Shown: positions 15,293 through 27,702 of the stretch, piece after piece
Layout of the letters: each line of letters opens with the position of its first letter
Position numbering within the stretch: the stretch's first letter is position 1
Source: an uncultured Selenomonadaceae bacterium
GTDB lineage: Bacteria; Bacillota; Negativicutes; Selenomonadales; Selenomonadaceae
Direction: 5' to 3'
DNA: 64,000 nucleotides
Assembly: GCA_905234705.1 (NCBI GenBank)
Contig: CAJOIB010000010.1
Span: 6,616 to 70,615 of the forward strand
The notes under the pieces: generated by a model
Databases searched by the model: none
Told to the model about the DNA's origin: nothing
What the model saw: only the letters and a program-made list of their open reading frames with translations
Made by a program: the position numbers and the translations under genes

Positions 15293-16217
15293 ATGGCGAA
15301 CGATAAAGCACGCCGAGGCGACGAAACTGCCGGCGATAAGAAGGGTATTCTGCTTGAAACCGGTACTAATGAATTTGAAATTGTCGAGTTCAGCATTGGC
15401 AAAGTTAATTACGGAATAAATGTTGCGAAAGTCCGTGAAGTCATTCAGCGCGCGCCGGTTACCGCAATGCCGCAGGCTCACCCGTACATTGACGGGCTTT
15501 TTACCCTGCGCGGCAAAGCTATTCCGCTGGTTAATCTTCCGCGCTGTTTGAATGTGGCGTCCGGCGAAGAAGCTAAAAATATTATCGTTACTGAAATTAA
15601 TAATTACGGCATTTTGGAAAGACATGGAACCCGCGCCCGAAGTCGGCGACCAATCGCGCGTTGTCGGTATTATTAAAATGAGCGACCGAATTGTCCTGTT
15701 GCTCGACTTTGAAACGATTATTGCGGAAATTAATCCGGAAATTAACGCGAAACTTACCACGGTTGAAGACGCCACTGAAGATACCCGTTCGATGCGCTCA
15801 AATATTCACGTGGTTGTTGCGGAAGATTCGGCTATGTTGCGCGATTTGCTTGTTACGACTTTGCACGATTCGGGCTACAGATTTGTTCGCGATTTCGGCA
15901 ACGGTATGGACGCTTGGGAATATCTGCGCACTCTCGCCAACAAAGATGGTCCTATTCATATGCACGTGGGTATCATTGTTTCTGACGTTGAAATGCCGAA
16001 AATGGACGGGCACAGACTTTTGAAACTCGTCCGCGATAACGACCGCCTGCATGAAGTTCCATTTGTACTGTTTTCTTCGTTGATTAGTGAAGAAATGCGC
16101 TTAAAGGGCGAATCACTTGGGGCGAGCGCGCAAATTTCTAAGCCGGAAATTAATCAGCTGATTGATATTCTCGACAAGCTGATTTTCGGAAAAACTTTGA
16201 AGCCGGTACAAGATTAA
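15293..16217 (+). pseudogene. cheV: Chemotaxis protein CheV (CheW domain + receiver), disrupted by an internal deletion and frameshift
   Basis: Frame 1 encodes the CheW-like N-terminus (...TGTNEFEIVEFSIGKVNYGINVAKVREVI...IIVTEINNYGI). Frame 3, from about 15612, encodes FWKDMEPAPE...VVGIIKMSDRIVLLLDFETIIAEINP plus a complete receiver domain (VVVAEDSAMLRD...VSDVEMPKMDG...SKP). About 13-14 codons are missing at the junction. Confidence 0.75.
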
Positions 16218-16244: not shown

Positions 16245-16279
16245 AAAATGCATTCGTGAAAACGAGTGCGTTTTTTTTT
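16245..16279 (+). terminator. Rho-independent terminator after cheV, abutting the RBS of the next operon
   Basis: GCATTCG-TGAAAA-CGAGTGC hairpin (one G.U pair) with an A-tract upstream and a T9 run at 16271-16279. The GGAGAGGGG RBS starts at 16280. Confidence 0.65.
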
Positions 16280-16296
16280 GGAGAGGGGCAACTTCT

Positions 16297-19248
16297 ATGC
16301 AGAAAAATCTTACCACCGCGGAAAAAATTTCTGATTTGTTGCAGAGCCATTCAAATTTGGAAATTTCTAATCCGTACAGTTTGAAAAGCGACGAACTTGA
16401 AGCCAACGAAATTTGCTTTTACAAAATAAATCTGCTGACATTCGACGAAGAATATCCGCACCGCGAGGCGTTTGAAAATGTTTTGCAGAGCCTTGACAAT
16501 GCGGCTTTTAATTTCGTGTACATTCTCAGCGGCGACGAGCGCGGCATCGAACTTTATATCGGCGTGGTGAAAAATCACAACGAAAATCAGCCCGTCCTCG
16601 GCAAACTTTTGAACGCGGCGAATTACGGAAAAAATATCGCGGGCGCATTTGCGGGGAATTTCGGCGGCAGTTCCCTTGAAAAATTAACCGGTCAAAATTT
16701 GACAAACGCCGTGATAAATTCTGCGCGACAATTCAAAAACGCGGGCGTCATTGTCGGTATCCCGTCCGTCAACGAAACCAAGGACAGCAAATACGGTTTC
16801 CAGGGGATTGACAGGCTGATAAACAGTATGCTCGGCGCGAAATGGCGAATTGTGGTTGTTTGCGAGCCGGTGAATAAATCTGAAATTGCGAAAATCCGCA
16901 GCGAAGTTTACAATCTTTACAATGAATTAGCGCCGCTCGCCCGTCAATCCGTTCAAAAATCTACCAGCAGTAATCAGACGCTGAGCCGCGGCACAAACGA
17001 ATCTACCACTAAGGGCACGAATTATTCTGACAGCGAAAGTTCGTCCGATTCGCACGGCAAACAAAATGATAATTCAAATTCGAGCCACTCCGACCAGACA
17101 AGCAAATCTTACGGCGAAAGTACGACAAAAACCACCGGCAGCAATGAAAGTACCGGCGTCAGTTCCGGCAGTTCGAGCGCGGTTACTTTGGAAATTGCGA
17201 ATAAGCAGGCGGCGGAAATTATTGACTACATCGACAATGAACTTTTGGAGCGCGTGAAAATCGGATTCAGCCGCGGCTTTTTCAAAACTTCGATTTATTA
17301 TATGGGCGAAAAGCCGATTGACGCCGAGCGCCTCAAAGTTGGAATTATTTCGTTGTTTCAAGGCAGCGGCTCATCGTATAGTCCGTTGCGCGCGTATCCG
17401 CTGAATGTCGAGCGCGATTTTAAAATTTTAAACAGTTACCAAAGTTTTTACATCAGCAATGAAAATAATTTGCCAGAAAAATTGACGCTGGCGAGCCGCC
17501 CGCATTTTGACAGCCGCCTTGGTTTGAATACCTATTTGACGTCGGGCGAAGTCAGCCTAATCGCTGGTTTGCCGCAAAAAGAAATTCCTGGTATCACCGT
17601 GAAGGAGAGCGTCGAATTTGGTTTGAATTTTAATCAGAGCGACGGCGAGATTATTTTGGGCAATTTGATTCAGAAGGGGCGCGAATTGCCTAGCATTCCA
17701 ATGAAAATCAGCCGCGAAGTTTTGAGCAAACACGTCTTTATTGCTGGCGTGACTGGTTCGGGCAAAACTACGACCTGCCACAAAATTTTGACGGAAGCCG
17801 CGGTTAAATTTTTGGTGATTGAGCCTGCGAAAACTGAATACCGCGCGCTGATAAATTCGCCGCATTTCGGCAACGTCGTTGTCTTTACGGTGGGCGACGA
17901 ATTGACCGCGCCTTTTCGGTTGAATCCGTTTGAATTGGTGCGCGGCGAAAGTGTTTCTGCTCACGTCGATATGTTGAAGGCTACGTTTACTTCGTCTTTC
18001 CCAATGGAAGCGTCGATGCCGCAGATTTTGGAAGAGGCGATTTACAAAATTTACGAAGACAAGGGCTGGGACATTGACACAAATAAAAATTATCTGATTG
18101 AGGCGCGCGCCGATTATAAAATTGGTGATGAATTTCGCGCAGAATTTGATACTTTTCCGACGCTGACTGATTTTTTGACGGCGCTTGAAAAAATTGTTGA
18201 CGAAAAAGGATTTAGCGACCGCCTGCGCGACGATTATCGCGGCTCACTGATTAGCCGGTTTTCCAATTTGACGAAAGGCTCAAAGGGCGCGCTTTTCAAC
18301 TGTCGCCGCTCGATTGATTTTGAAAAACTGATTAATCAAAACGTCGTCATTGAAATGGAAAATTTGAAATCGGCGGAAGATAAGGCGCTGTTAATGGGAT
18401 TTATTTTAACGCGGCTGGCGGCGGTTATCAAACGGCGAAACAAATTGGATAAAAATTTCCGGCACATAACGCTGATTGAAGAGGCGCACCGGCTTTTATC
18501 GAAAGTTGAATTAGGCGACGGCGGCTCAAAGCGGACGGCGGTTGAAACTTTCACAGATTTACTCGCGGAGATTCGCAAGTACGGCGAAAGTCTGATAATC
18601 GTTGACCAGATACCGAATAAACTTGCGCCCGAAGTTTTGAAAAATACCAACACGAAAATAATTCACCGGCTTTTTGCGCGCGACGACAAAGAAGCGGTTG
18701 GTGATACGATGCTGATGGACGACAAGCAGAAAGAATATTTATCGGCGCTGGAAACTGGGCAGGCGATTATTTTTAGTGAAGGAATGCGCCGCCCCGCGCA
18801 CGTCAAGATTCAGAGCGTGACGGATACCGGCGACAGCGTTGTTGACAATGACGCCGTTAAATCGCAGTTTGTCAAAAATTTTGGCGCGTGGTATTGCGAT
18901 TTGGAAATTTCGCGCAGGTTTAATCGGGCGGTTTATGATTTGCTGAAAAAAATTGCGGTTGAATATCTCGACAAAAATTCATTGGAAATTGAAACTTTAA
19001 ATGCTGTGGCGAAAATTCGCTCGGCTGTGAAAAATTTCTGCGCGACTTTCGATTTTGAAGAAATTGCGGCGGCTGACGTTACGAAATATCTTGCGGAAGA
19101 ATTTACAAGACTCAAAGCAGGTGATAAAATTTTTGAACGGCGGCTTGAGAATTTTCTGAATTTGCTGATTGGCGATTTTACTTTGGAAAAAATTTCGGGT
19201 GACAGGGAAAATTTGAAGTTGCTGATAAATATTAAACGAGAATTTTAA
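16297..19248 (+). CDS. Large HerA/FtsK-superfamily (DUF87-like) ATPase with an unknown N-terminal domain and a Ser/Thr-rich linker
   Basis: 983 aa. Walker A is IAGVTGSGKTTT (about nt 17744-17776). Walker B/sensor is HITLIEEAHRLL (about nt 18463-18492). The HerA-type C-terminal block is LAEIRKYGESLIIVDQIPNKLAPEVLKNTNTKIIHRLFARDD. Residues ~215-300 are low-complexity Ser/Thr/Asn (GTNESTTKGTNYSDSESSSDSHGKQNDNSNSSHSDQTSKSYGESTTKTTGSNESTGVSSGSSS). Confidence 0.7.
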   Translation: MQKNLTTAEKISDLLQSHSNLEISNPYSLKSDELEANEICFYKINLLTFDEEYPHREAFENVLQSLDNAAFNFVYILSGDERGIELYIGVVKNHNENQPVLGKLLNAANYGKNIAGAFAGNFGGSSLEKLTGQNLTNAVINSARQFKNAGVIVGIPSVNETKDSKYGFQGIDRLINSMLGAKWRIVVVCEPVNKSEIAKIRSEVYNLYNELAPLARQSVQKSTSSNQTLSRGTNESTTKGTNYSDSESSSDSHGKQNDNSNSSHSDQTSKSYGESTTKTTGSNESTGVSSGSSSAVTLEIANKQAAEIIDYIDNELLERVKIGFSRGFFKTSIYYMGEKPIDAERLKVGIISLFQGSGSSYSPLRAYPLNVERDFKILNSYQSFYISNENNLPEKLTLASRPHFDSRLGLNTYLTSGEVSLIAGLPQKEIPGITVKESVEFGLNFNQSDGEIILGNLIQKGRELPSIPMKISREVLSKHVFIAGVTGSGKTTTCHKILTEAAVKFLVIEPAKTEYRALINSPHFGNVVVFTVGDELTAPFRLNPFELVRGESVSAHVDMLKATFTSSFPMEASMPQILEEAIYKIYEDKGWDIDTNKNYLIEARADYKIGDEFRAEFDTFPTLTDFLTALEKIVDEKGFSDRLRDDYRGSLISRFSNLTKGSKGALFNCRRSIDFEKLINQNVVIEMENLKSAEDKALLMGFILTRLAAVIKRRNKLDKNFRHITLIEEAHRLLSKVELGDGGSKRTAVETFTDLLAEIRKYGESLIIVDQIPNKLAPEVLKNTNTKIIHRLFARDDKEAVGDTMLMDDKQKEYLSALETGQAIIFSEGMRRPAHVKIQSVTDTGDSVVDNDAVKSQFVKNFGAWYCDLEISRRFNRAVYDLLKKIAVEYLDKNSLEIETLNAVAKIRSAVKNFCATFDFEEIAAADVTKYLAEEFTRLKAGDKIFERRLENFLNLLIGDFTLEKISGDRENLKLLINIKREF

Positions 19249-19264
19249 TTTAGGGGGAAGCTTT

Positions 19265-19900
19265 ATGTCAATTTTTGGAGCAATTTTTTCTGGGATAAGT
19301 AGCGTGCTGAGCGTAGTGTCAAATGTATTCACGCCGATTTTGACGAAAATTCTTGGACCGGCGCTTGAGAAACTTGGGCGGGCGTTTGAGGCTTTTTTCA
19401 AAGAATTGGGGTTGATTGAGCCGGAAGAGAAAGTTGAAGAAATTGGAGACCGCGCATTGCAGGCGGAAGTCGACGAAATTCATCCGGTTAAAATTGAAAC
19501 TTTCGACAATCACGAAAAATATTTGGCGGCGCTCAAAGAATATGAGCCGAGCGCTGAAAAATCCGCGCTGATTCCGGTTGACGATAAACTTCACAAAGGG
19601 CTTGAGGTTTTAATGGGGCTGGCGATTTCGCGCTACGGGCAGTCTATGAGCGAATTTGGGCAGATTATTTTGAATAACCCCGAATTTTACAGTCAATTTG
19701 GCAGGCTGGCGGAAATTGGCAGTATCGCCCGCGATAAAACTGAAACTTTCGCCGATATCGTGAATTACATTGCGGGCAAAAGTATGAGCAGCGAAAAAAC
19801 TGACACGGCGATTGACGCGCTCGTTGACATTGAGAAAAAAGTTAATCCGGAGGCGACTGACGCTGAAATTTTGAAAACTGTTAGCGATTTGAAAAAGTGA
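19265..19900 (+). CDS. Hypothetical protein with small-residue-rich hydrophobic N-terminus
   Basis: 211 aa. The N-terminus is MSIFGAIFSGISSVLSVVSNVFTPILTKILGPAL (Gly/Ser-zipper-like), followed by an acidic helical region. A GGGGGA RBS lies 16 nt after the upstream stop. Confidence 0.6.
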   Translation: MSIFGAIFSGISSVLSVVSNVFTPILTKILGPALEKLGRAFEAFFKELGLIEPEEKVEEIGDRALQAEVDEIHPVKIETFDNHEKYLAALKEYEPSAEKSALIPVDDKLHKGLEVLMGLAISRYGQSMSEFGQIILNNPEFYSQFGRLAEIGSIARDKTETFADIVNYIAGKSMSSEKTDTAIDALVDIEKKVNPEATDAEILKTVSDLKK

Positions 19901-20373
19901 GGCGATTGATTTTGTTGCAATATTTTTTAGTTATCTGCAAAAATCGGTTTTACGTTTACCGAACTGACGGCGCGCCGGAATATTTTGGTGGCAATGATTA
20001 TTTTGAATATGAGCAGAGCAAGATTCGCGAGGCGGCGGCTCAACTTGTCGAGGAAATTTTGAGCAACAACAATCTTGCCGACAGAAACGAATTACAATTT
20101 GCGCTGATTGAGAATAGCGACGCCGTGCGCAATGAGATTGTGCTGAAGGAACTGAAGAATTTGGTAGTTCAGCGTTACGCGGTGAATGATTTAGTTTACG
20201 CGGCGATGGTTGATTTGGCTAAAAATCCTGCGCTGTACATTCGCGAATTGGGCGTAAATTATGACGGCGAAAGTCACCATTTGGACGCGAATAATCCGAT
20301 GTGGCGGGGCGCTTATAGTTTGCTGGCGTTGACGATTGAGCCGATTGAATTGTTAAAGCGCGTGGGGAGGTAG
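19897..20373 (+). CDS. Hypothetical protein
   Basis: 158-aa ORF. Its GTG start overlaps the upstream stop (GTGA). No family recognised. The start codon is uncertain. Confidence 0.5.
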   Translation: MRRLILLQYFLVICKNRFYVYRTDGAPEYFGGNDYFEYEQSKIREAAAQLVEEILSNNNLADRNELQFALIENSDAVRNEIVLKELKNLVVQRYAVNDLVYAAMVDLAKNPALYIRELGVNYDGESHHLDANNPMWRGAYSLLALTIEPIELLKRVGR

Positions 20374-20377
20374 TTTT

Positions 20378-21922
20378 ATGGAAAAGATTATTTGTGGCAA
20401 ATGTCACGCCGAGAATAATGCAAAGCGGCATTTCTGCGCGAAGTGCGGGGCTTTTCTGCACACGGATTTTGACGCGAAAGTTTATGCGTTGCCGGAAGTT
20501 AAAATGATGCGCGTTGTGGAAAATTTATTGCGAGTTCCGCACCAGCCAATAAATTGGGACGACGTGACGGACGCTTACACGGCGAAGGCTGAAAAATGGC
20601 AGGCGCTGTTCAATGTCCCTGGAATGGGCGCGGAAACAAATTCTGCGGTTGTCGAGAAGATTGAAGATTTTTTGAATCTGTGCCGCAATGCCGATTTTCA
20701 AATTGCGTTCGTCGGTACGATTAAAACGGGCAAATCGACGCTGATAAATGCGCTGTTAGGCAAAGAATACGCGTCAATGGACGTGACGCCGGAAACCGCC
20801 GCTTTGACGAAATTTCGTGCCAGCCCGCGCGATTATGTTGACGTGACTTTTTACACGCAAAAGGAATGGGACAACCTTTGGGCTTCGCGCTCCAAGGACG
20901 CAACCGATTTTATGAAGGAATACGAATTGCTTGACGGCGATTCGCAAAAATCTAAATGGATTAATCAGCCGCAGCGCCATATCGAAATGGCTAACGAAGA
21001 TATTCAGCAGGAATTAAAAATTTGGTCGAGTTCACAGCGGGTGGAACATTATTTCGTCAAGGAAATTGAAGTTGGAATTTCGACGTTGCCGCGGGATTTT
21101 CCGGCGCAGGTTGTATTCGTCGACACGCCAGGATTATCAGATCCGGTTGCATATCGTTCGGAGCTGACGAAAAATTATATCCGGCGGGCAAATGCGGTTT
21201 TCGTTTGCGTCGAGGCGCAGAAAATGATGTTCGAGGAAATGAACACAATCCAATCGGTAATGTCGCTGTCTTCGCACGACAAGAGCAAAGTTTTTGTCAT
21301 AGCCACGCACTGGGACACATTGCACGACCCAGAAACGGATTGGGCAAAGCAGAAAAATTTTTACATTCGGCGCTTAACCGGACCGGCTTTTTATGACAAT
21401 CAGCAAATGGCGGCGGATAATATTTTGTATTCGGCGGCGTACATTTATAATCTGTGCAAAAATTTTCACGCGCTCGACCCGAATAACAGGGCTGATAAGC
21501 GGCAGATTCGCACGCTTGAAGATTTCGGCGATTATTTTGACTGCGCGCCCGACGATTTGCGGACGATTGGCGAAAAGACTAACATTGTGGCGATTAGGAA
21601 AATTATTCGCGACCGGCTCGCGGCGAATTATAAAAAATTTTTGGCGGGCGATATTAAGCGGAAATTTATGGACGTGAATTTTAATCTGAATCGCGTTGCC
21701 AGCGAAAATAAAGCGAGTATGATTGAGCGCTTAACGGCGTCCTATGCTGACGAACAAGAATTAGCCGCGAAATTGGATGAACAGCGCAAAAAATGCGATA
21801 ACGTCCGGCAAGTTTCCGACCAGCTTAACGAAATTATGAAGAAGGTTAAGCACAAGACTAAAACGCGCGCCGATGTTATTTGCGGGAAATTGCGGCTGAA
21901 ATTGAGCGAGTCGAAAAAATGA
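20378..21922 (+). CDS. Dynamin-like GTPase with N-terminal zinc ribbon
   Basis: Zinc ribbon is [20 protein letters not shown]1 is [16 protein letters not shown] (about nt 20714). G2-region Thr is [10 protein letters not shown]3 is [10 protein letters not shown] (about nt 21121). G4-like is VIATHWD. The C-terminal tail is helical and charged. Confidence 0.75.
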
Positions 21923-22863
21923 GCGCGGCTATAACTTTGCAGGAAATTTCTGCTAAATTGGATTATGGGCTGATAGGCGACGGCGCTTTGAAAGTTTCAG
22001 CGTTTAAATTTGCCGCGGAAGCTGATGAAAATTCTTTAGCGGTAGTACTCAGCGATAAAGAGGCGATTGACACTGCGGCGCGTGCGGTATTGACGACGCC
22101 GAGGATTTTGCCGATTGATAAAACTTTTCTGTACTGCAATTTTAAAAAGATGAGCGCGGCGATAGTTGACGTTGCGCGGCTGATGATTGACGCCGGAATT
22201 TATCCCGATTATGAAAAAAATTTTGAGCAGGTTGAAAAGCACTGCGCGATGTTCGGTAAAAATTTTGAGATTGGTGAAGGCAGTTACGTTGGCGCTTTTG
22301 CAAATATCGGCGAAAATGTTAAAATTGGCAGGAATTGTAAGATTGGCGCGGGCGTTTATATCGGCTCTGACGTTGAGATTGGCGACGGCGTGAAAATTCA
22401 TTCTGGCGCGCGGATTGGCGCTAATTGCCATTATCATTTTACGCAACACCACAAGCAGAAAAGTTTTTGCGGGATTGGGCGGGCGCTGATTGAAGATGGC
22501 GTTGAAATTGGCTACAACACGGTGATTCAGCGCGGCTCTTTGTCCGATACCGTGATTGGCGCGGGTACGATTATTGGCAATTTGGTTGAGATTGGACACG
22601 ACGTAAAAATCGGCAAAGATTGTTTGATAGTTTCGCAGGCGGGCATATGCGGCGGCGTGGAGATTGGCGAACGGGTTCAGATTTACGGGCAAGTTGGAAT
22701 TGCTGACAGGGTTAAAATTGGCAGCGACGCAACGATTATGGCGAAATCCGGCGTTACCAAAGACATTCGCGCAGGGCAAGTTGTTTCGGGAATGTTCAGC
22801 CGCAGTCATTTAGACGAATTGAAACGGCAGGCGAAATTTAGGAAACTGACTAAGGGGGAATAG
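21919..22863 (+). CDS. LpxD-like left-handed beta-helix N-acyltransferase (out of lipid A context)
   Basis: The ATG overlaps the dynamin-like stop (ATGA). It has an LpxD-type N-terminal domain ([43 protein letters not shown]), hexapeptide repeats, a conserved catalytic-His context ([10 protein letters not shown]) and an LpxD-type C-terminal helix ([17 protein letters not shown]). Confidence 0.7.
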
Positions 22864-22866
22864 ACT

Positions 22867-23658
22867 ATGGGCGGAGGCGGTGGCTGCGGAGATATTTGTT
22901 GCATTACGCATTGCGGCTTTTGCTGTGTTTTTAAATGCAGTGACTGCGGCGATTGTTGCGTGGGTCATTGTAGCGGAGATTGTGGCGGTACTCGTGTTTC
23001 CAGTGGCGGTGGCGGTTGTTCTGATTATCAAGAAGATCCGCAAACTCGGCACGCGGAGATTATTGCTAACGAATTGGCGGAAATGAAGAAGCGCTCGACT
23101 GAGGACGCCAAACGCGAAGAGGACGCCATTCTCAAAGACATTAACGAAACCATGGACGAATTTATTGATTGGCTCAAAAAAATTAACAGCGAACCGTACG
23201 GCGGGCGCAGTCTGAATATTAATATCACGAAAATTAATGAGCTCAATGAAGAATTGCGAAACGCGGTTATCGGCTCAATCGGCAAACATTTGGATTCTAA
23301 GCTGGTTATGACTGACGAAAACGTCAAGCTGATTCTTTCCGATATGAATGATAAGACGCGCAAGAAAAAATTTGACGAGTTTTATCGGCAAACTCTGCGC
23401 GACGCTATTAGGAATTTGATTAAAATTATTGAAGATTCCGTTCAAAAACAATCTGAGAGTATCGAGCGCGAAATTCAAAATCGCATTAATGAAGTCCAGC
23501 AAAGTATGTCCGAAGAGGCGGGCGCGTTTGAGGAACTTCAGCAGATTAAACAGCAGAAAAATTTAGGTATGGCGGAAAAACGCGTTGAATATATGTACTA
23601 CGAAAATCTGTGCGATATTATGTTCGACCAGCTGAAACTTTCCGGCATTAAAAGGTGA
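22867..23658 (+). CDS. Cysteine-string / coiled-coil protein
   Basis: 263 aa. The N-terminus is MGGGGGCGDICCITHCGFCCVFKCSDCGDCCVGHCSGDCGGTRVSSGGGGCSDY, with 13 Cys in 51 residues. The remaining ~200 aa are charged heptad-like helices. An AAGGGGG RBS lies 8 nt upstream. Confidence 0.7.
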   Translation: MGGGGGCGDICCITHCGFCCVFKCSDCGDCCVGHCSGDCGGTRVSSGGGGCSDYQEDPQTRHAEIIANELAEMKKRSTEDAKREEDAILKDINETMDEFIDWLKKINSEPYGGRSLNINITKINELNEELRNAVIGSIGKHLDSKLVMTDENVKLILSDMNDKTRKKKFDEFYRQTLRDAIRNLIKIIEDSVQKQSESIEREIQNRINEVQQSMSEEAGAFEELQQIKQQKNLGMAEKRVEYMYYENLCDIMFDQLKLSGIKR

Positions 23659-23664
23659 TTCGCT

Positions 23665-25011
23665 ATGCTCAATTTAATTTCCGGAAATGAAAATATTCTT
23701 GCGCTGATGTACGCTATGTCGAGCGATTTGGATTTGAAAGATAATTCCGCGCGTTTGGAAAATCTTCGCGCAGTGGTGGAAAATTCGGCGGAAGTCAAGC
23801 CGTCGGTTTTCAATTATCACGTCGAGGCGGCGGAAAAAATTTTGATTTACAATACGCTTTACAATTCAATGACTTGGTTAACGAAAGAGGAATTTGCTCA
23901 ACTTGGCGGCGAAATTTTTGATGACGAATTGCGGCGGAATTTTCTTGAGAGCGGAATTTGCGTGGCGGCGAATGTTGACGAGCGGGCGAATTATCATAAG
24001 TGGCGGATTCTTTTTCAAAAAAAGTCCGAGCATTTGTCGGTGAATATTACCACGACGCTGAAATGCAACGCGCGCTGTCCCTATTGCTACGAGCACGGCG
24101 TCAAGCACATTGACTTTGATGACACTAAGATTGACGCGCTGATAGATTTTATTAAGCGGCACAAAAAAAATTCGCCGGTTAAACTGAATTGGTTTGGCGG
24201 CGAACCTTTTATGAATCCGAAAATTATTGACACCGTGACGCGGCGGCTCGGCGAAATCGGCTTTCCATTTTTCTGCTACGCCATTACCAACGGAAATTTA
24301 TTGACGCGGCAAATGATTAATACCAAATTCAAGCAATGGCATATTCGCGGCGTTCAGATAACTTTGGACGGCACGGCGGAACAATACGCGGCGCGCAAAA
24401 ATTATACCGGCAATCAGCGCGATGTTTTCAAAAAAATTTTAAATCGTATTCAATGGCTCGCTGAAGCAAATATTCACGTTGACGTGCGGCTGAATATCGA
24501 CCGCCAAAATCTGTGCGATATGCTCAATCTTATTTACATTTTGCAGGCGCGTTTTGACGGCGAAAAAAATATTTGTTATTATCCGGCGTTTGTTACGGGC
24601 TTGCAGGATAAATTGACTGAAACTGAGAAATTAGATTTTGTCAAGGAAATGTTTAACGCGGTTGCCAATTCCGCCAAACTCAGCATTACAAATCGGCTGT
24701 ATTCTTTCCCGCGCAGTATTCCGTGTATGCGCAATGATCCGCAGTCATTTTCTGTTGATGTTTACGGGCGGATTTATAATTGTGAGCATTTGGTCGGGCG
24801 CGCTGAAAAATCGTTAGGAACTTTAAAACGTTTGCCGACAAAAATTAATGACGCGCGGCTTGAAGAAAATCTGCGCGAGGAATGCGGAAGTTGCGTATTT
24901 CTGCCGAAATGTATGGGCGGCTGTGCGTCGAATTTGGAAACCGGCGATAGCGCGTGCCTGATTGAAAAATATTTAATTAAAGCATATATGCAGTATATGT
25001 GCGAACGCTAG
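23665..25011 (+). CDS. Radical SAM enzyme with C-terminal SPASM domain (peptide/protein maturase type)
   Basis: The CxxxCxxC motif is CNARCPYC (nt 24064-24087). The SPASM motifs are CMRNDPQSFSVDVYGRIYNC (Cx13Gx4C) and CGSCVFLPKCMGGC (Cx2Cx5Cx3C). The N-terminal ~110 aa resemble the RRE/PqqD-like leader-binding region of such maturases (ILIYNTLYNSMTWLTKEEFAQL...LESGICV). Confidence 0.85.
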   Translation: MLNLISGNENILALMYAMSSDLDLKDNSARLENLRAVVENSAEVKPSVFNYHVEAAEKILIYNTLYNSMTWLTKEEFAQLGGEIFDDELRRNFLESGICVAANVDERANYHKWRILFQKKSEHLSVNITTTLKCNARCPYCYEHGVKHIDFDDTKIDALIDFIKRHKKNSPVKLNWFGGEPFMNPKIIDTVTRRLGEIGFPFFCYAITNGNLLTRQMINTKFKQWHIRGVQITLDGTAEQYAARKNYTGNQRDVFKKILNRIQWLAEANIHVDVRLNIDRQNLCDMLNLIYILQARFDGEKNICYYPAFVTGLQDKLTETEKLDFVKEMFNAVANSAKLSITNRLYSFPRSIPCMRNDPQSFSVDVYGRIYNCEHLVGRAEKSLGTLKRLPTKINDARLEENLREECGSCVFLPKCMGGCASNLETGDSACLIEKYLIKAYMQYMCER

Positions 25012-25020
25012 GAGGTAAAA

Positions 25021-25383
25021 ATGGACGACATTGCAAAAATTTTGGAACAGCAGGAAGAAATTTTACGCTCAATACACCGGCTGGAGGAAGAAGTTAGCCT
25101 AATCAAATTTTTACACCACAGTCAGTACGACGAAACAAATGCGCGGCTTGAAATGTTCGAGCGGTCATTGCGGCAAATCGACGAACAACTTGCACTTTCA
25201 AATATGAGCCAAGAATCGCGCGACGACAAAATAAAAAAATTGCTTAGTGAATTTCAGCGTGCGAATCAATCGCGGCGGCTGAATATGATTGAAGAATTGC
25301 TCCGGTTAATCGCCGCCAATCAGATAATGGATTCGCTCGAACCGCCGAAAAAACCGCGGGGCAATAAATCGCAGAAAAAATAA
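25021..25383 (+). CDS. Small coiled-coil protein, hypothetical
   Basis: 120 aa, predicted helical and charged (ILEQQEEILRSIHRLEEEVSLIKF...), with a basic tail (PPKKPRGNKSQKK). An AGGAGG RBS lies upstream. Confidence 0.55.
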   Translation: MDDIAKILEQQEEILRSIHRLEEEVSLIKFLHHSQYDETNARLEMFERSLRQIDEQLALSNMSQESRDDKIKKLLSEFQRANQSRRLNMIEELLRLIAANQIMDSLEPPKKPRGNKSQKK

Positions 25384-25400
25384 TCTTGGGAGGAATTTTA

Positions 25401-26795
25401 ATGAGCATACTAGCTTCGGTCGTAGTACCGCACCCGCCTATCATTTTGCCGGAAATTGGCAAGGGCGAAGAATCCAAAATCGCCGCAACTACCGCCGCTT
25501 ATAAAGAAATTTCAAAGCGCGTGGTCGAACTTGCGCCCGATACGATTGTTATCACCAGCCCGCACTCGATTATGTACGCGGATTATTTTCACATTTCGCC
25601 TGGCGAATCGGCTAGCGGGAATATGGCGAGATTTCGCGCGCCCGAAGTCGATTTGACTATTAACTATGACGTTGAATTTGTTGACAAATTGAGCGCGGCG
25701 GCTATGGCTGAAAATATTCCCGCCGGTAAAATTGGCGAGCGCGAAAAAAGTTTAGACCACGGCACGATGATTCCGCTTTATTTTTTGGAAAAAGCAGGTT
25801 TAGATTTTGACGCGGTTAAATTTTTGCGCATAGGGCTTTCTGGTTTGCCCGCGGCGGCGCATTATCATTTTGGGCAGGTTATTTCAAAGGTTGCGGACGA
25901 ATTGAACAGGCGCGTTGTATTCGTGGCGAGCGGTGACCTTTCGCACAAACTCAAAGCGGATGGTCCTTACGGTTTTGTTGAAGAAGGTCCGAAATTCGAC
26001 GCCGAGGTTATGGAAAATTTATCCGACGAAGATTTTTTGAAATTGTTGACGATGGATAATACGATGTGCAATCGCGCGGCTGAATGCGGCTTGAGGAGTT
26101 TTTGGATAATGGCGGGCGCGCTCGATAAAAAATCCGTTCAAGCTGAAAAATTGTCCTATGAAGGACCTTTCGGCGTTGGCTACGGCGTTGTTTGGTTTAA
26201 CATTAACGGCGTTGACAGTTCGCGGAATTTTGCCGCCAAGCTTGAAAATTTTAAGCATGAAGAATATTTAAAGCGCATTGAAACTGAAGACGAATACGTG
26301 AAACTGGCGCGCTACAGCCTTGAAACTTACATTAAGACGCACAAGGCGGCGGAAATGCCCAAAGATTTGCCTGCTGAAATGTTGAATCGGCGTTCGGGAA
26401 CTTTCGTCAGTCTTCATAAAGACGGGAATTTGCGCGGCTGTATCGGAACATTTTTGCCGACAACTGAATCTATCGCGCAGGAGATTTTGCAAAACGCCAT
26501 TTCTGCCTGTTCGAGAGACCCGCGCTTTTCGCCGGTCGAAGAATCCGAAATTGAAGACCTTGACATCAGCGTTGACGTTTTGTCTGAACCGGAGCGAATT
26601 TTTGACGTCAAAGATTTGGACGCAAAAAAATACGGCGTTATCGTCGAGAACAACGGACGCCGCGGTTTATTGTTGCCGGATTTGGAAGGCGTTAATACCG
26701 TGCAAGAGCAACTCGCCATCGCTATGAAAAAAGGCGGTATCCCCGCCAATGAAAAAGTTAACGTGTGGCGTTTCCAAGTAATTCGCCATCATTAA
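25401..26795 (+). CDS. Fusion of class III extradiol dioxygenase-like (LigB/Memo superfamily) domain and AMMECR1 domain
   Basis: N-terminal domain: VVPHPPIILPE...ITSPHS...SLDHGTMIPLYFL...VASGDLSHKL. C-terminal AMMECR1 domain: SGTFVSLHKDGNLRGCIGTF...ACSRDPRFSPV...YGVIVENNGRRGLLLPDLEGV. Start set at the ATG at 25401 after a GGGAGGA RBS. Confidence 0.8.
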   Translation: MSILASVVVPHPPIILPEIGKGEESKIAATTAAYKEISKRVVELAPDTIVITSPHSIMYADYFHISPGESASGNMARFRAPEVDLTINYDVEFVDKLSAAAMAENIPAGKIGEREKSLDHGTMIPLYFLEKAGLDFDAVKFLRIGLSGLPAAAHYHFGQVISKVADELNRRVVFVASGDLSHKLKADGPYGFVEEGPKFDAEVMENLSDEDFLKLLTMDNTMCNRAAECGLRSFWIMAGALDKKSVQAEKLSYEGPFGVGYGVVWFNINGVDSSRNFAAKLENFKHEEYLKRIETEDEYVKLARYSLETYIKTHKAAEMPKDLPAEMLNRRSGTFVSLHKDGNLRGCIGTFLPTTESIAQEILQNAISACSRDPRFSPVEESEIEDLDISVDVLSEPERIFDVKDLDAKKYGVIVENNGRRGLLLPDLEGVNTVQEQLAIAMKKGGIPANEKVNVWRFQVIRHH

Positions 26796-27232
26796 ATCGC
26801 CGCATCTTCGTAATTTTCTTCATCGTCATAAGATGGAGTATTTAAATTGTCCCAAAAAATTCTGTAGTTCATACTGGATTTGACTTGCCCGCGCGCCGGA
26901 CAATCCGCGTCTTTGTGCGTGAAAATGTGATGAACTTCCTGCCCCGACGGAACAATTAATTCTTTCGGATAAAAATGAACATTTCGCGCAGACCAAATCC
27001 AAAAGTCGTTGTTGTTCACTGCGCGAATGTTTTCCAGTAAAAAGTGCGTGATTCTGGCATCCTGGTCGCCGGAATTTATGAAGTGCCCGTATAAAACCGC
27101 TTGCCCTTCATTCAAAATGAGTTTATCGGCTTGAAATTTCAAATTCGCTCCGGCGCTCGCAACGCCATTTGCAAAAATAAAAATCGCAACAGCCATAATC
27201 GCCGCAACAAAAAAATTTTTCAAGATAATCAC
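26792..27232 (-). CDS. Hypothetical exported protein
   Basis: 146 aa with an N-terminal signal/anchor (FFVAAIMAVAIFIFANGVASA). No family recognised. Its stop overlaps the stop of the convergent AMMECR1 gene (TTAA). Confidence 0.5.
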   Translation of the reverse strand: MIILKNFFVAAIMAVAIFIFANGVASAGANLKFQADKLILNEGQAVLYGHFINSGDQDARITHFLLENIRAVNNNDFWIWSARNVHFYPKELIVPSGQEVHHIFTHKDADCPARGQVKSSMNYRIFWDNLNTPSYDDEENYEDAAI

Positions 27233-27237
27233 GCCCC

Positions 27238-27702
27238 TTAAAAAATTTCTTGCGCCCGCTGTTCAAATCGTGTAACAATTTCCGTGTGAAGTGATTCGTT
27301 GAGCTCCATTAACGCCAGCCAAAAATCACTCCGGCGCGGAAATTCTTTTTTTGGCAACATCGTTTCGACAAAATCTAATGCGTCGTCGCCGAAGCAAATT
27401 TTTCGCACAATCGCCGTTACCGCCACGCCAAAAGTTATTATCGACGGTATCACCCACGGCAGGGCGTTCGCCACAATCGGAATTAATTTTTTCAGCGCAA
27501 GGTATATCGCCGACGCCAGCACGCCGATTAATACGCAAACCGTTTTGAAAAAAACCATAACCGCGCCAATGAATACGCCCGCCAATACTGCCAGCGCTTG
27601 AAAAATCAGCCGCAAAAATCCCAGCCCGCAAATCAGCAAAATCGCCGCCGCTATCACAATTCCAACCATAACTAACGCCCCTCTCGATTTAAAGCGTGTC
27701 AA
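27238..27702 (-). CDS. Hypothetical integral membrane protein
   Basis: 154 aa with about four hydrophobic helices and a soluble C-terminal tail. Located downstream of upp. Confidence 0.5.
   Translation of the reverse strand: MTRFKSRGALVMVGIVIAAAILLICGLGFLRLIFQALAVLAGVFIGAVMVFFKTVCVLIGVLASAIYLALKKLIPIVANALPWVIPSIITFGVAVTAIVRKICFGDDALDFVETMLPKKEFPRRSDFWLALMELNESLHTEIVTRFEQRAQEIF

Follow-up and report, generated by a model that had tools for sequence, protein, structure and literature searches.

A mobile eight-gene cassette of gut and rumen bacteria that may encode a two-module membrane machine with a dynamin-like GTPase and a HerA-type ATPase

A 64,000-nucleotide stretch of DNA from an uncultured Selenomonadaceae bacterium (contig CAJOIB010000010.1, positions 6,616 to 70,615; hereafter the window) carries, at 16297-26795, nine open reading frames (ORFs) on the plus strand, which were named g1 to g9 in order from the ORF list of the window. 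Judged from gene content in related genomes, the unit comprises the first eight of these (16297-25383, 9.1 kb), inserted between cheV and a resident gene, g9; it is a cassette that is rare among gut and rumen bacteria and moves horizontally. The reading tentatively preferred, though it falls a little short of an even chance, is that g1-g8 form a mobile accessory cassette encoding a two-module, nucleotide-driven membrane machine, most likely a phage-defence or interbacterial conflict system. An earlier note on this DNA had proposed an ATPase- and GTPase-driven machine coupled to a modified, Cys-rich coiled-coil protein, and this proposal gained support from the tracking of a radical S-adenosylmethionine (SAM) gene with a Cys-rich head, from a fusion of g5 to a g6-like protein and from a complex model of g4 with g6. 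The features of the locus are as follows.

16250..16279, plus strand: terminator-like hairpin with a T-run, 3' of the frameshifted cheV, read directly; upstream insertion boundary
16297..19248, plus strand: g1, 983-aa ATPase of HerA/VirB4 fold (DUF87, AlphaFold2 model, Foldseek)
19265..19900, plus strand: g2, 211-aa protein with a hydrophobic N-terminal segment (no family; hydropathy)
19897..20373, plus strand: g3, protein of about 153-158 aa with a non-catalytic RNase H-like/actin-like half fold (AlphaFold2 model, structure comparison)
20378..21922, plus strand: g4, 514-aa short dynamin-like GTPase with an N-terminal Zn ribbon (Dynamin_N)
21919..22863, plus strand: g5, 314-aa LpxD-like left-handed beta-helix (LbH) acyltransferase (NF002060, TIGR01853)
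22867..23658, plus strand: g6, 263-aa protein with a Cys-repeat head and a coiled-coil body (family comparison)
23665..25011, plus strand: g7, 448-aa radical SAM/SPASM enzyme (Radical_SAM, TIGR04085)
25021..25383, plus strand: g8, 120-aa coiled-coil protein, last gene of the cassette (conserved C-terminal motif)
25401..26795, plus strand: g9, LigB-AMMECR1 fusion, resident gene and downstream boundary marker (genus-wide presence)

When profiles built from the window's proteins were searched against related genomes and loci, more than 20 genomes were found to keep the order g1-g2-g3-g4-g5-g6-g7, accompanied by a g8-like gene on one side or the other of g7; identities to the window copies ran from 96% down to 23-48%. 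The hosts were several Selenomonadaceae metagenome-assembled genomes (MAGs; reindeer and water buffalo), Eubacterium, Lachnospiraceae and Eisenbergiella MAGs, and one Fibrobacter MAG. Within the family the cassette was carried by 14 of 262 genomes (about 5%) and 3 of 40 genera, and a census of 36,145 genera returned it in only a handful. At least three insertion sites were recognized within the window's genus (cheV|g9, gcpE|metG and others), and the flanks differ between cassette loci; recurrence in unrelated genomes with different flanks, a check named in the earlier note, was thereby confirmed. The idea that unrelated genes lie together here by accident is scarcely credible, since, beyond g9, which alone proved an unrelated neighbour, seven to eight genes retain the same order in two phyla, at 23-48% identity and between different flanks, and a gene fusion exists; the synteny already contradicts it. 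Every related cassette contains clear homologues of g2 and g3, previously described as two orphans, and a spore or essential-envelope role, formerly among the candidates, is a poor fit to a cassette present in about one in twenty of the family's genomes.

The inclusion of the LigB-AMMECR1 gene in a nine-gene unit did not stand. Homologues of g9 were found in 22 of the 24 other genomes of the genus, with or without g1, as compared with g1 in only 9 of the same 24. In the cassette-free genomes G003 and G022 a cheV-like gene directly adjoins g9, with an equivalent hairpin and T-run between the two genes in loci of this type. Because it is present in cassette-free genomes and adjoins cheV there, g9 was placed outside the unit, and no homologue of it was found in any distant cassette examined. 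Its AMMECR1 part (the "A") scored 133.7 against a cut-off of 99, and its Memo/LigB part (the "B") barely reached the threshold (26.1 against 26). The radical SAM partner of AmmeMemoRadiSam systems, defined by TIGR04337, was located on contig C71, with no match on the window's contig C10, and the locus accordingly does not hold a complete AmmeMemoRadiSam set; an identification of g7 as this partner was rejected, the TIGR04337 protein being on C71 and not on the contig of g7. That protein (G000 C71:6709-7536, minus strand, 244.7 bits) contains one in-frame TGA; the gene could be a pseudogene, the codon could be recoded, or the sequence could be in error.

Partial loci show that the cassette is made of two modules, A (g1-g3) and B (g4-g8), the second of which is able to stand alone. 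In L023, beside an integrase, only genes for a dynamin-like protein (DLP), the LbH protein, g6, a coiled-coil protein, the radical SAM enzyme and a further DLP are present, g1-g3 being missing; G156 is without g1-g2, G179 without g2-g3, and a Eubacterium locus without g1-g2. The link between ATPase and dynamin extends well beyond the cassette, the N-terminal domain of g1 being found in 144 genera of 22 phyla, with a Dynamin_N gene within 8 kb of its gene in 48 of the 144 carriers, compared with fewer than 3 for random places. By likeness band, the proximity held for 45 of 117 carriers at <20% and for fewer than 3 of 24 at 20-39%, the upper bands, with fewer than 5 tried, being too small to read. 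In the same genus and class, g1-like ATPases accompany long dynamins of 600-890 aa, up to four of them in L015. If the proposed machine is real, the result would also define a wider, unstudied partnership of this HerA-like ATPase family with dynamins, set amid toxins and defence genes.

The GTPase g4 was assigned to the dynamin-like proteins by its Dynamin_N score (70.5 bits, Pfam cut-off 27) and its G1/G3/G4 motifs; across 8 homologues there is no change in the P-loop, DTPG and T-H-W-D blocks, and the Zn ribbon is optional. Its best solved relative was 5owv (74 bits), chain A of which aligned with nearly the whole length of g4; we take this structure to be the Campylobacter jejuni DLP1/DLP2 pair. 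The full architecture of a bacterial dynamin-like protein (BDLP) is not present, g4 having 514 aa compared with 695-732 aa for solved BDLPs and no membrane paddle or transmembrane segment of its own (no hydrophobic segment in the hydropathy profile, maximum over 19 residues 1.08). When g4 was modelled with residues 55-263 of g6, the predicted complex obtained an ipSAE of 0.72 (runs 0.65, 0.72 and 0.78), with 0.00 for the best of 3 controls. Of 80 solved complexes, 58 attain this ipSAE mark, as do 2 of 110 mismatched pairs. At least 75% of the contacts were common to the runs, and the partner pLDDT (predicted local distance difference test) was at least 73. In the predicted interface, g4 helices 17-90 and the C-terminal helix 434-512 lie against g6 residues 84-117 and 174-258; by analogy with solved dynamins, these g4 helices would presumably form the neck. 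The complex model supports, and does not demonstrate, binding of g4 to the g6 body, and the interface fits a "split dynamin" in which g6 would supply trunk and tip. If so, a dynamin could be divided into a GTPase part and a separately encoded membrane tip that is built post-translationally.

The proposed partner, g6, begins with Met-Gly and has a head of Cys repeats, about 55 aa long, ahead of a conserved, helical coiled-coil body. Its family was resolved into 83 clusters at 90% identity and 309 representatives at 50%, of which 171 had E <= 1e-10; against solved structures, the g6 profile returned chance coiled-coil matches only. Close members have a median of 11 Cys in the first 50 or so residues, versus 1 in the body, and in relatives the median number of Cys-Cys-[VILF]-x-[DN] units is three. 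In the wider family three kinds of head were distinguished: the Cys repeat, seen in 39 of the 115 full-length representatives, a hydrophobic helix rich in Gly and Ala, and an amphipathic segment, the Met-Gly start being kept in 95 of the 115 irrespective of head type. That plain hydrophobic helices and the Cys repeat replace one another speaks for the head as a tip that engages the membrane. Three tandem paralogues of the family with amphipathic heads of Met-Gly-Phe-Trp type were also observed at a contig start (L064:26-2244), adjoining a prophage-like region with an integrase, an S24 peptidase and methyltransferases.

The Cys type of head was found to be tracked by g7, which, with its CX3CX2C radical SAM core and SPASM auxiliary-cluster domain, qualifies as a radical SAM/SPASM maturase (Radical_SAM 46.6 bits against 29.5, SPASM TIGR04085 39.1 against 27, the Cys motifs being visible in the translation). 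Among mutually related loci, g7 was present in 18 of the 18 Cys-head loci with downstream sequence and missing from the three hydrophobic-head loci L067, L072 and L077 (3/3), where Pfam returned no Radical_SAM among the downstream genes; two further hydrophobic-head loci, L062 and L027, were left out of this count because their contigs end before that point, L072 extending L027. The closest equivalogs of g7 were those of maturases for peptides that are made by ribosomes and modified post-translationally (RiPPs), namely CefB (141 bits against a cut-off of 600), Clo7bot (135 against 600), TIGR04463 (129 against 525) and PapB (96.7 against 340), none of the cut-offs being reached, and the nearest solved structure was CteB (5wgg). 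By these scores g7 belongs to the clade of Cys-rich-peptide maturases; it probably matures the g6 head; given these nearest families and this structure, thioether cross-linking is the most economical guess for the chemistry. PapB forms Cys-Asp/Glu thioethers (PMC9413430, PMC10739248).

The clade of g7, the periodic Cys repeat with its median of three CC-x-x-[DN] units and the covariation of the radical SAM gene with the Cys head would also suit a RiPP-like cluster, in which the head is a ranthipeptide or sactipeptide core that is cross-linked by g7, acylated by g5, cleaved and released as a lipopeptide. This was considered improbable, as the "precursor" is a conserved coiled-coil protein of 230-280 aa that lacks a leader and has its Cys region at the very N-terminus, the library scans found neither a protease nor an exporter gene, and members with a hydrophobic head differ neither in the body nor in their dynamin and ATPase neighbours. 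Because both are unchanged, the head was read as the functional tip of a structural protein. The natural series of heads, with a Cys repeat and radical SAM gene on one side and a hydrophobic helix without that gene on the other, makes the hypothesis directly testable.

A second candidate for maturation of the head is g5, which scored 210.8 bits with NF002060 (cut-off 207, just reached) and 197.3 with the LpxD equivalog TIGR01853, below its cut-off of 242.5. It keeps the LpxD N-domain, beta-helix and C-terminal helix, with an invariant catalytic His; the true LpxD of the genome was found on contig C25 (351.7 bits), on which ground g5 was rejected as the housekeeping enzyme. In four genomes (G154, G139, G156 and G013), g5 occurs only as the C-terminal half of a fusion whose N-terminal half is g6-like and has its own Cys head, with a free g6 next after it. 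These fusions came from the profile search of related loci, and a search with the window protein found no fused forms of g6 of greater length. Lipidation is put forward as a hypothesis only. A cassette with a Cys head and no g5 (L056, G180:C30, 5704-7436) has a g6 ORF with a 148-aa N-terminal extension that matches no family and is possibly the remnant of a deleted or fused acyltransferase; g5 is likewise missing from L067, which has a hydrophobic head. In a distant low-GC host (L030:10579-14009), FabD, FabG, FabF and FabZ lie directly after the cassette, no acpP being seen between fabG and fabF, and in one genus (L054:7760-9127) the cassette is followed by a Zn-ribbon protein and a protein of the LRAT/NlpC-P60 family, a pair that could be an extra lipid-active component.

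An account of the cassette as envelope or membrane maintenance with no conflict role, in which g5 makes an alternative acylated sugar-lipid while dynamin and coiled coils repair or shape stressed membrane, draws on the LpxD architecture and catalytic His of g5, on the fatty-acid synthesis genes after the cassette in L030 and on the membrane repair carried out by bacterial dynamins such as DynA. It was judged unlikely. Eubacterium and Lachnospiraceae are monoderm Clostridia, expected to be without a lipid A pathway, and the normal acceptor of LpxD should on this general expectation be absent from them, yet they also carry the cassette; one variant (L067) is entirely without g5; and the patchy distribution, the shifting insertion sites and the restriction-modification (R-M), WYL and toxin neighbours fit conflict genes better.

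The remaining gene of module B, g8, has homologues of 105-400 aa located before or after g7, with a common C-terminal amphipathic motif. Two g8-like coiled coils (L025:12450-13655 and L051:15037-15996) contain about 10-13 tandem 25-residue repeats, with the family C-terminal motif at the end, and may serve as length-variable spacers or "rulers".

In module A, the AlphaFold2 model of g1 (pLDDT 69.5) comprises an alpha/beta N-domain (about residues 39-222), a disordered Ser/Thr-rich linker (220-299), a P-loop domain of HerA/VirB4 fold and a helical C-terminus. Membership of the HerA/FtsK superfamily followed from the fold (Foldseek, HerA 4d2i, E 1.1e-16, with VirB4, SIR2-HerA and DUF4297-HerA also among the matches), from DUF87 (33.9 bits, cut-off 23.2) and from Walker A and B motifs that are invariant in 12 homologues; a hydropathy scan of g1 gave no transmembrane segment. 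Over residues 219-825, g1 matched the serine-rich family NF033849 with 160.7 bits against a cut-off of 650, by which it is a relative and not a member, and in the Atlas its N-domain was also present on many DUF87 proteins of several phyla. The hydropathy peak of g2 lies in residues 1-19, within a Gly/Ser-rich hydrophobic N-segment that precedes a conserved helical body; its homologues follow g1-like ATPases in 14 loci, with N-segments of 20 to 100 aa, and an Atlas search with g2 returned unnamed clusters only. The protein is proposed as a membrane-anchored partner of g1 and, being conserved from end to end, is probably no polymorphic toxin. For g3, a well-defined AlphaFold2 model (pLDDT 91.7) gave an RNase H-like/actin-like half domain in which the catalytic motifs are absent; VIA Z scores were 8.7 for uS11 (best), 7.7 for BT_3980 (actin-like fold), 5.9 for FtsA and 5.8 for PilM, and all Foldseek matches had E >= 4.5e-3. 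As a lead, g3 may be an adaptor tying a hexameric ATPase to a membrane platform. Identification of g3 as a SUKH-type immunity protein was rejected on account of this fold.

The place directly 3' of g1-like ATPases is taken by a g2-like protein or else by a small LHH nuclease together with a SUKH immunity protein, the LHH/SUKH pairs holding the g2/g3 position only in distant relatives of module A. Other neighbours of g1-like ATPases include an AAA_15/21 ATPase and a set of kinase, PP2C and SF1-helicase genes, and beside cassettes elsewhere lie R-M genes (type I and MmeI), WYL regulators and an integrase; with the toxins, this is company typical of conflict systems. Related or paralogous cassettes with a dynamin, a g1-like ATPase, an LHH nuclease and SUKH were observed in L015 (G036:C29), L016 (G027:C60) and L017 (G014:C25), L015 having four dynamin genes and an AAA_15/21 ATPase. 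In two genomes of one genus, R-M genes adjoin the cassette: type I HsdM/HsdS genes occupy L051:618-3359, HsdM lying about 1.9 kb upstream of g1, and an MmeI-type enzyme occupies L057:15942-18656, about 0.8 kb past the g8-like gene.

These nuclease and immunity pairs, directly 3' of the ATPase in L015 and L016, are also a ground for reading the cassette as an export device, in which the HerA/VirB4-fold ATPase would load cargo that bears a hydrophobic N-terminal signal (g2 in this cassette, small LHH nucleases in other loci) and the dynamin module would pinch off or fuse membrane for delivery to competitors. The L016 toxin has a Gly/Ala-rich hydrophobic N-terminus like that of g2, the best structural matches of g1 include the type IV secretion protein VirB4, and LeoA-type dynamins have been linked to vesicle-borne toxin release. 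Set against this, g2 is kept along its whole length with no polymorphism at the C-terminus, the fold of g3 is not of an immunity type, channel, secretin or other transporter genes were not found in the cassette by the library scans, and module B occurs without g1-g3. Export was rated as rather improbable, though it ranked first among the three functional alternatives, followed by membrane maintenance and then by a true RiPP cluster.

In the preferred model of a two-module machine, module B would be the core. The N- and C-terminal helices of g4 would pack on the helical body of g6, so that the pair behaves as a split bacterial dynamin with the N-terminal head of g6 as its membrane-engaging tip. 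The Met-Gly-(Cys-Cys-x-x-x)n head would become membrane-active only once matured: g7 would cross-link it, probably through thioethers as CteB and PapB do, and g5, as an LpxD-like acyltransferase using acyl groups from acyl carrier protein (ACP), would add or supply an acyl group to the head or to a partner lipid. The exposed N-terminal glycine of g6 is a candidate target, because LpxD is an N-acyltransferase. The matured head would insert in the membrane, which g4 and g6 would remodel with GTP, proteins of g8 type acting as adaptors. In module A, the hexameric g1 ATPase, kept at the membrane by g2 and g3, would serve as sensor or motor. A bolder version, and an unlikely one as it stands, would have the cassette define a new class of dynamin, with its tip provided in trans, cross-linked by a radical SAM enzyme and N-acylated on glycine (compare the dual lipidation of eukaryotic Met-Gly-Cys proteins), working with a HerA-type ATPase as an anti-phage or anti-competitor device.

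Several observations weigh against the preferred model. The count of 18/18 against 0/3 for g7 is taken from mutually related loci, overstates their independence and is not a statistic. The tie of g5 to the Cys head is not strict, g5 being retained in three hydrophobic-head loci and missing from the Cys-head locus G180; the known targets of hexapeptide acyltransferases are small molecules and not proteins, and g5, with its LpxD-type N-domain, may acylate a nucleotide sugar instead. In the window's own g6 head, the last position of the unit is occupied by His or Lys and not by the Asp or Asn of most relatives, and a Cys-Asp link of PapB type is thus not guaranteed there. The complex predictor readily lays long helices together. 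No part of the cassette matched the PADLOC or NCBIfam defence models at family level, no direct or inverted att-like repeats were found around the cassette, and the genes of the wider surroundings in the window are of housekeeping type (DUF711, the beta subunit of oxaloacetate decarboxylase, upp, a gene of the CMD family, pdxK and tsaD).

On re-reading of the coordinates, the nine closely spaced ORFs described earlier were recovered, with gaps from g1 to g9 of 16, -4, 4, -4, 3, 6, 9 and 2 nt, the last becoming 17 nt if g9 starts at ATG 25401, which, lying behind GGGAGG, is most likely its start. The stop/start overlaps GTGA at 19897 and ATGA at 21919 were likewise present. A Shine-Dalgarno sequence had been claimed for each ORF; purine runs of this kind were seen upstream of g1, g2, g4, g6, g7 and g8, but the GTG of g3 at 19897 has none, and homologues start about 5 codons downstream, at a TTG behind GAGG, which is probably the true start of g3. 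The placing of the block between a decayed cheV with its terminator and a convergent gene overlapping the last stop was also confirmed. Upstream, cheV lies in two overlapping frames, a CheW half at 15293-15676 and a REC domain at 15552-16217; close relatives show an identical truncated match to cheV (from residue 22), and a genuine frameshift, as opposed to an error of assembly, may account for the split. Downstream, a convergent ORF on the minus strand (26792-27232) overlaps the stop of g9; it is the first of two small convergent ORFs (146 and 154 aa, 26792-27702, minus strand) with no family match, and opens with a signal-peptide-like hydrophobic stretch. No shift in base composition marks the cassette within the window.

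Library scans upheld all of the motif-based domain calls made earlier, namely DUF87/HerA, Zn ribbon with Dynamin_N, LpxD-like hexapeptide, Radical_SAM with SPASM and LigB with AMMECR1. For g2, g3, g6 and g8, no family was found in Pfam, NCBIfam, PADLOC or PHROGs, and PHROGs and PADLOC gave matches at domain level only for the cassette proteins. The statement that no described system has such a composition was also sustained: no PADLOC system matched, and literature searches on the system and its named parts returned no description, a 2026 preprint on ParA NTPases touching on dynamins only in passing and a 2012 survey of polymorphic toxins not describing the pairing of dynamin with a HerA-type ATPase. 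Within the libraries and papers searched, nothing described the combination, which fails the defining tests of the four kinds of system that it resembles.

With the bacterial dynamin pairs (5owv, Nostoc BDLP and B. subtilis DynA) the cassette shares the Dynamin_N domain of g4 with its conserved G motifs and a helical partner, here modelled, and L023 has two DLP genes. It departs from them in that g4 is without trunk tip or paddle, the proposed partner is a coiled-coil protein with a modified head and not a second dynamin, and radical SAM, acyltransferase and HerA-type genes are added. Eleos (LeoA/LeoBC) is similar in its dynamin-family GTPase and accessory, conflict-type context; the resemblance is at domain level only, PADLOC LeoA (44 bits) and LeoBC (33 bits) both matching on the GTPase domain, and with 33.3 bits for NF041922 against a cut-off of 325 and no LeoBC-type partner, the cassette falls outside Eleos. 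The SIR2-HerA/Nezha and DUF4297-HerA systems have the HerA fold in common with g1 (E 1e-14 to 1e-12 in Foldseek), and relatives of g1, like the ATPases of HerA-effector complexes, adjoin variable effectors. However, g1 has an extra N-domain and a Ser-rich linker, its scores of 57 and 46.9 bits lie far below the cut-offs of 800 (HerA_antiphage model) and 850 for the anti-phage HerA proteins, and no SIR2 or DUF4297 partner was found among g2-g8.

The ranthipeptide and sactipeptide maturases (PapB, CteB and CefB) resemble g7 in their radical SAM and SPASM domains and in having a periodic, Cys-rich candidate substrate next door, and QhpD (TIGR03906, E 1.4e-12), which cross-links a protein subunit, offers a parallel in that the target of g7 would be a protein and not a short peptide. 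Unlike these maturases, g7 remains below every equivalog cut-off, and its substrate region would be the N-terminus of a structural protein of 260 aa. A classical RiPP cluster is not matched either, the candidate substrate having 230-280 aa with its Cys region in residues 1-55 and no leader, and protease and transporter families not being found in g1-g8 by the library scans. If the model is true, radical SAM chemistry of the RiPP kind would reach beyond small secreted peptides to the maturation of a large structural protein of a machine. Finally, g5 is like LpxD in its N-domain, left-handed beta-helix, C-terminal helix and catalytic His, and unlike it in scoring below the equivalog cut-off beside a true LpxD elsewhere in the genome, in being fused to a coiled-coil protein in four genomes and in occurring in cassettes of lineages named as Clostridia; on the same condition, this would be a case of an LpxD-type acyltransferase put to use in a process other than lipid A synthesis, which may be the lipidation of proteins.

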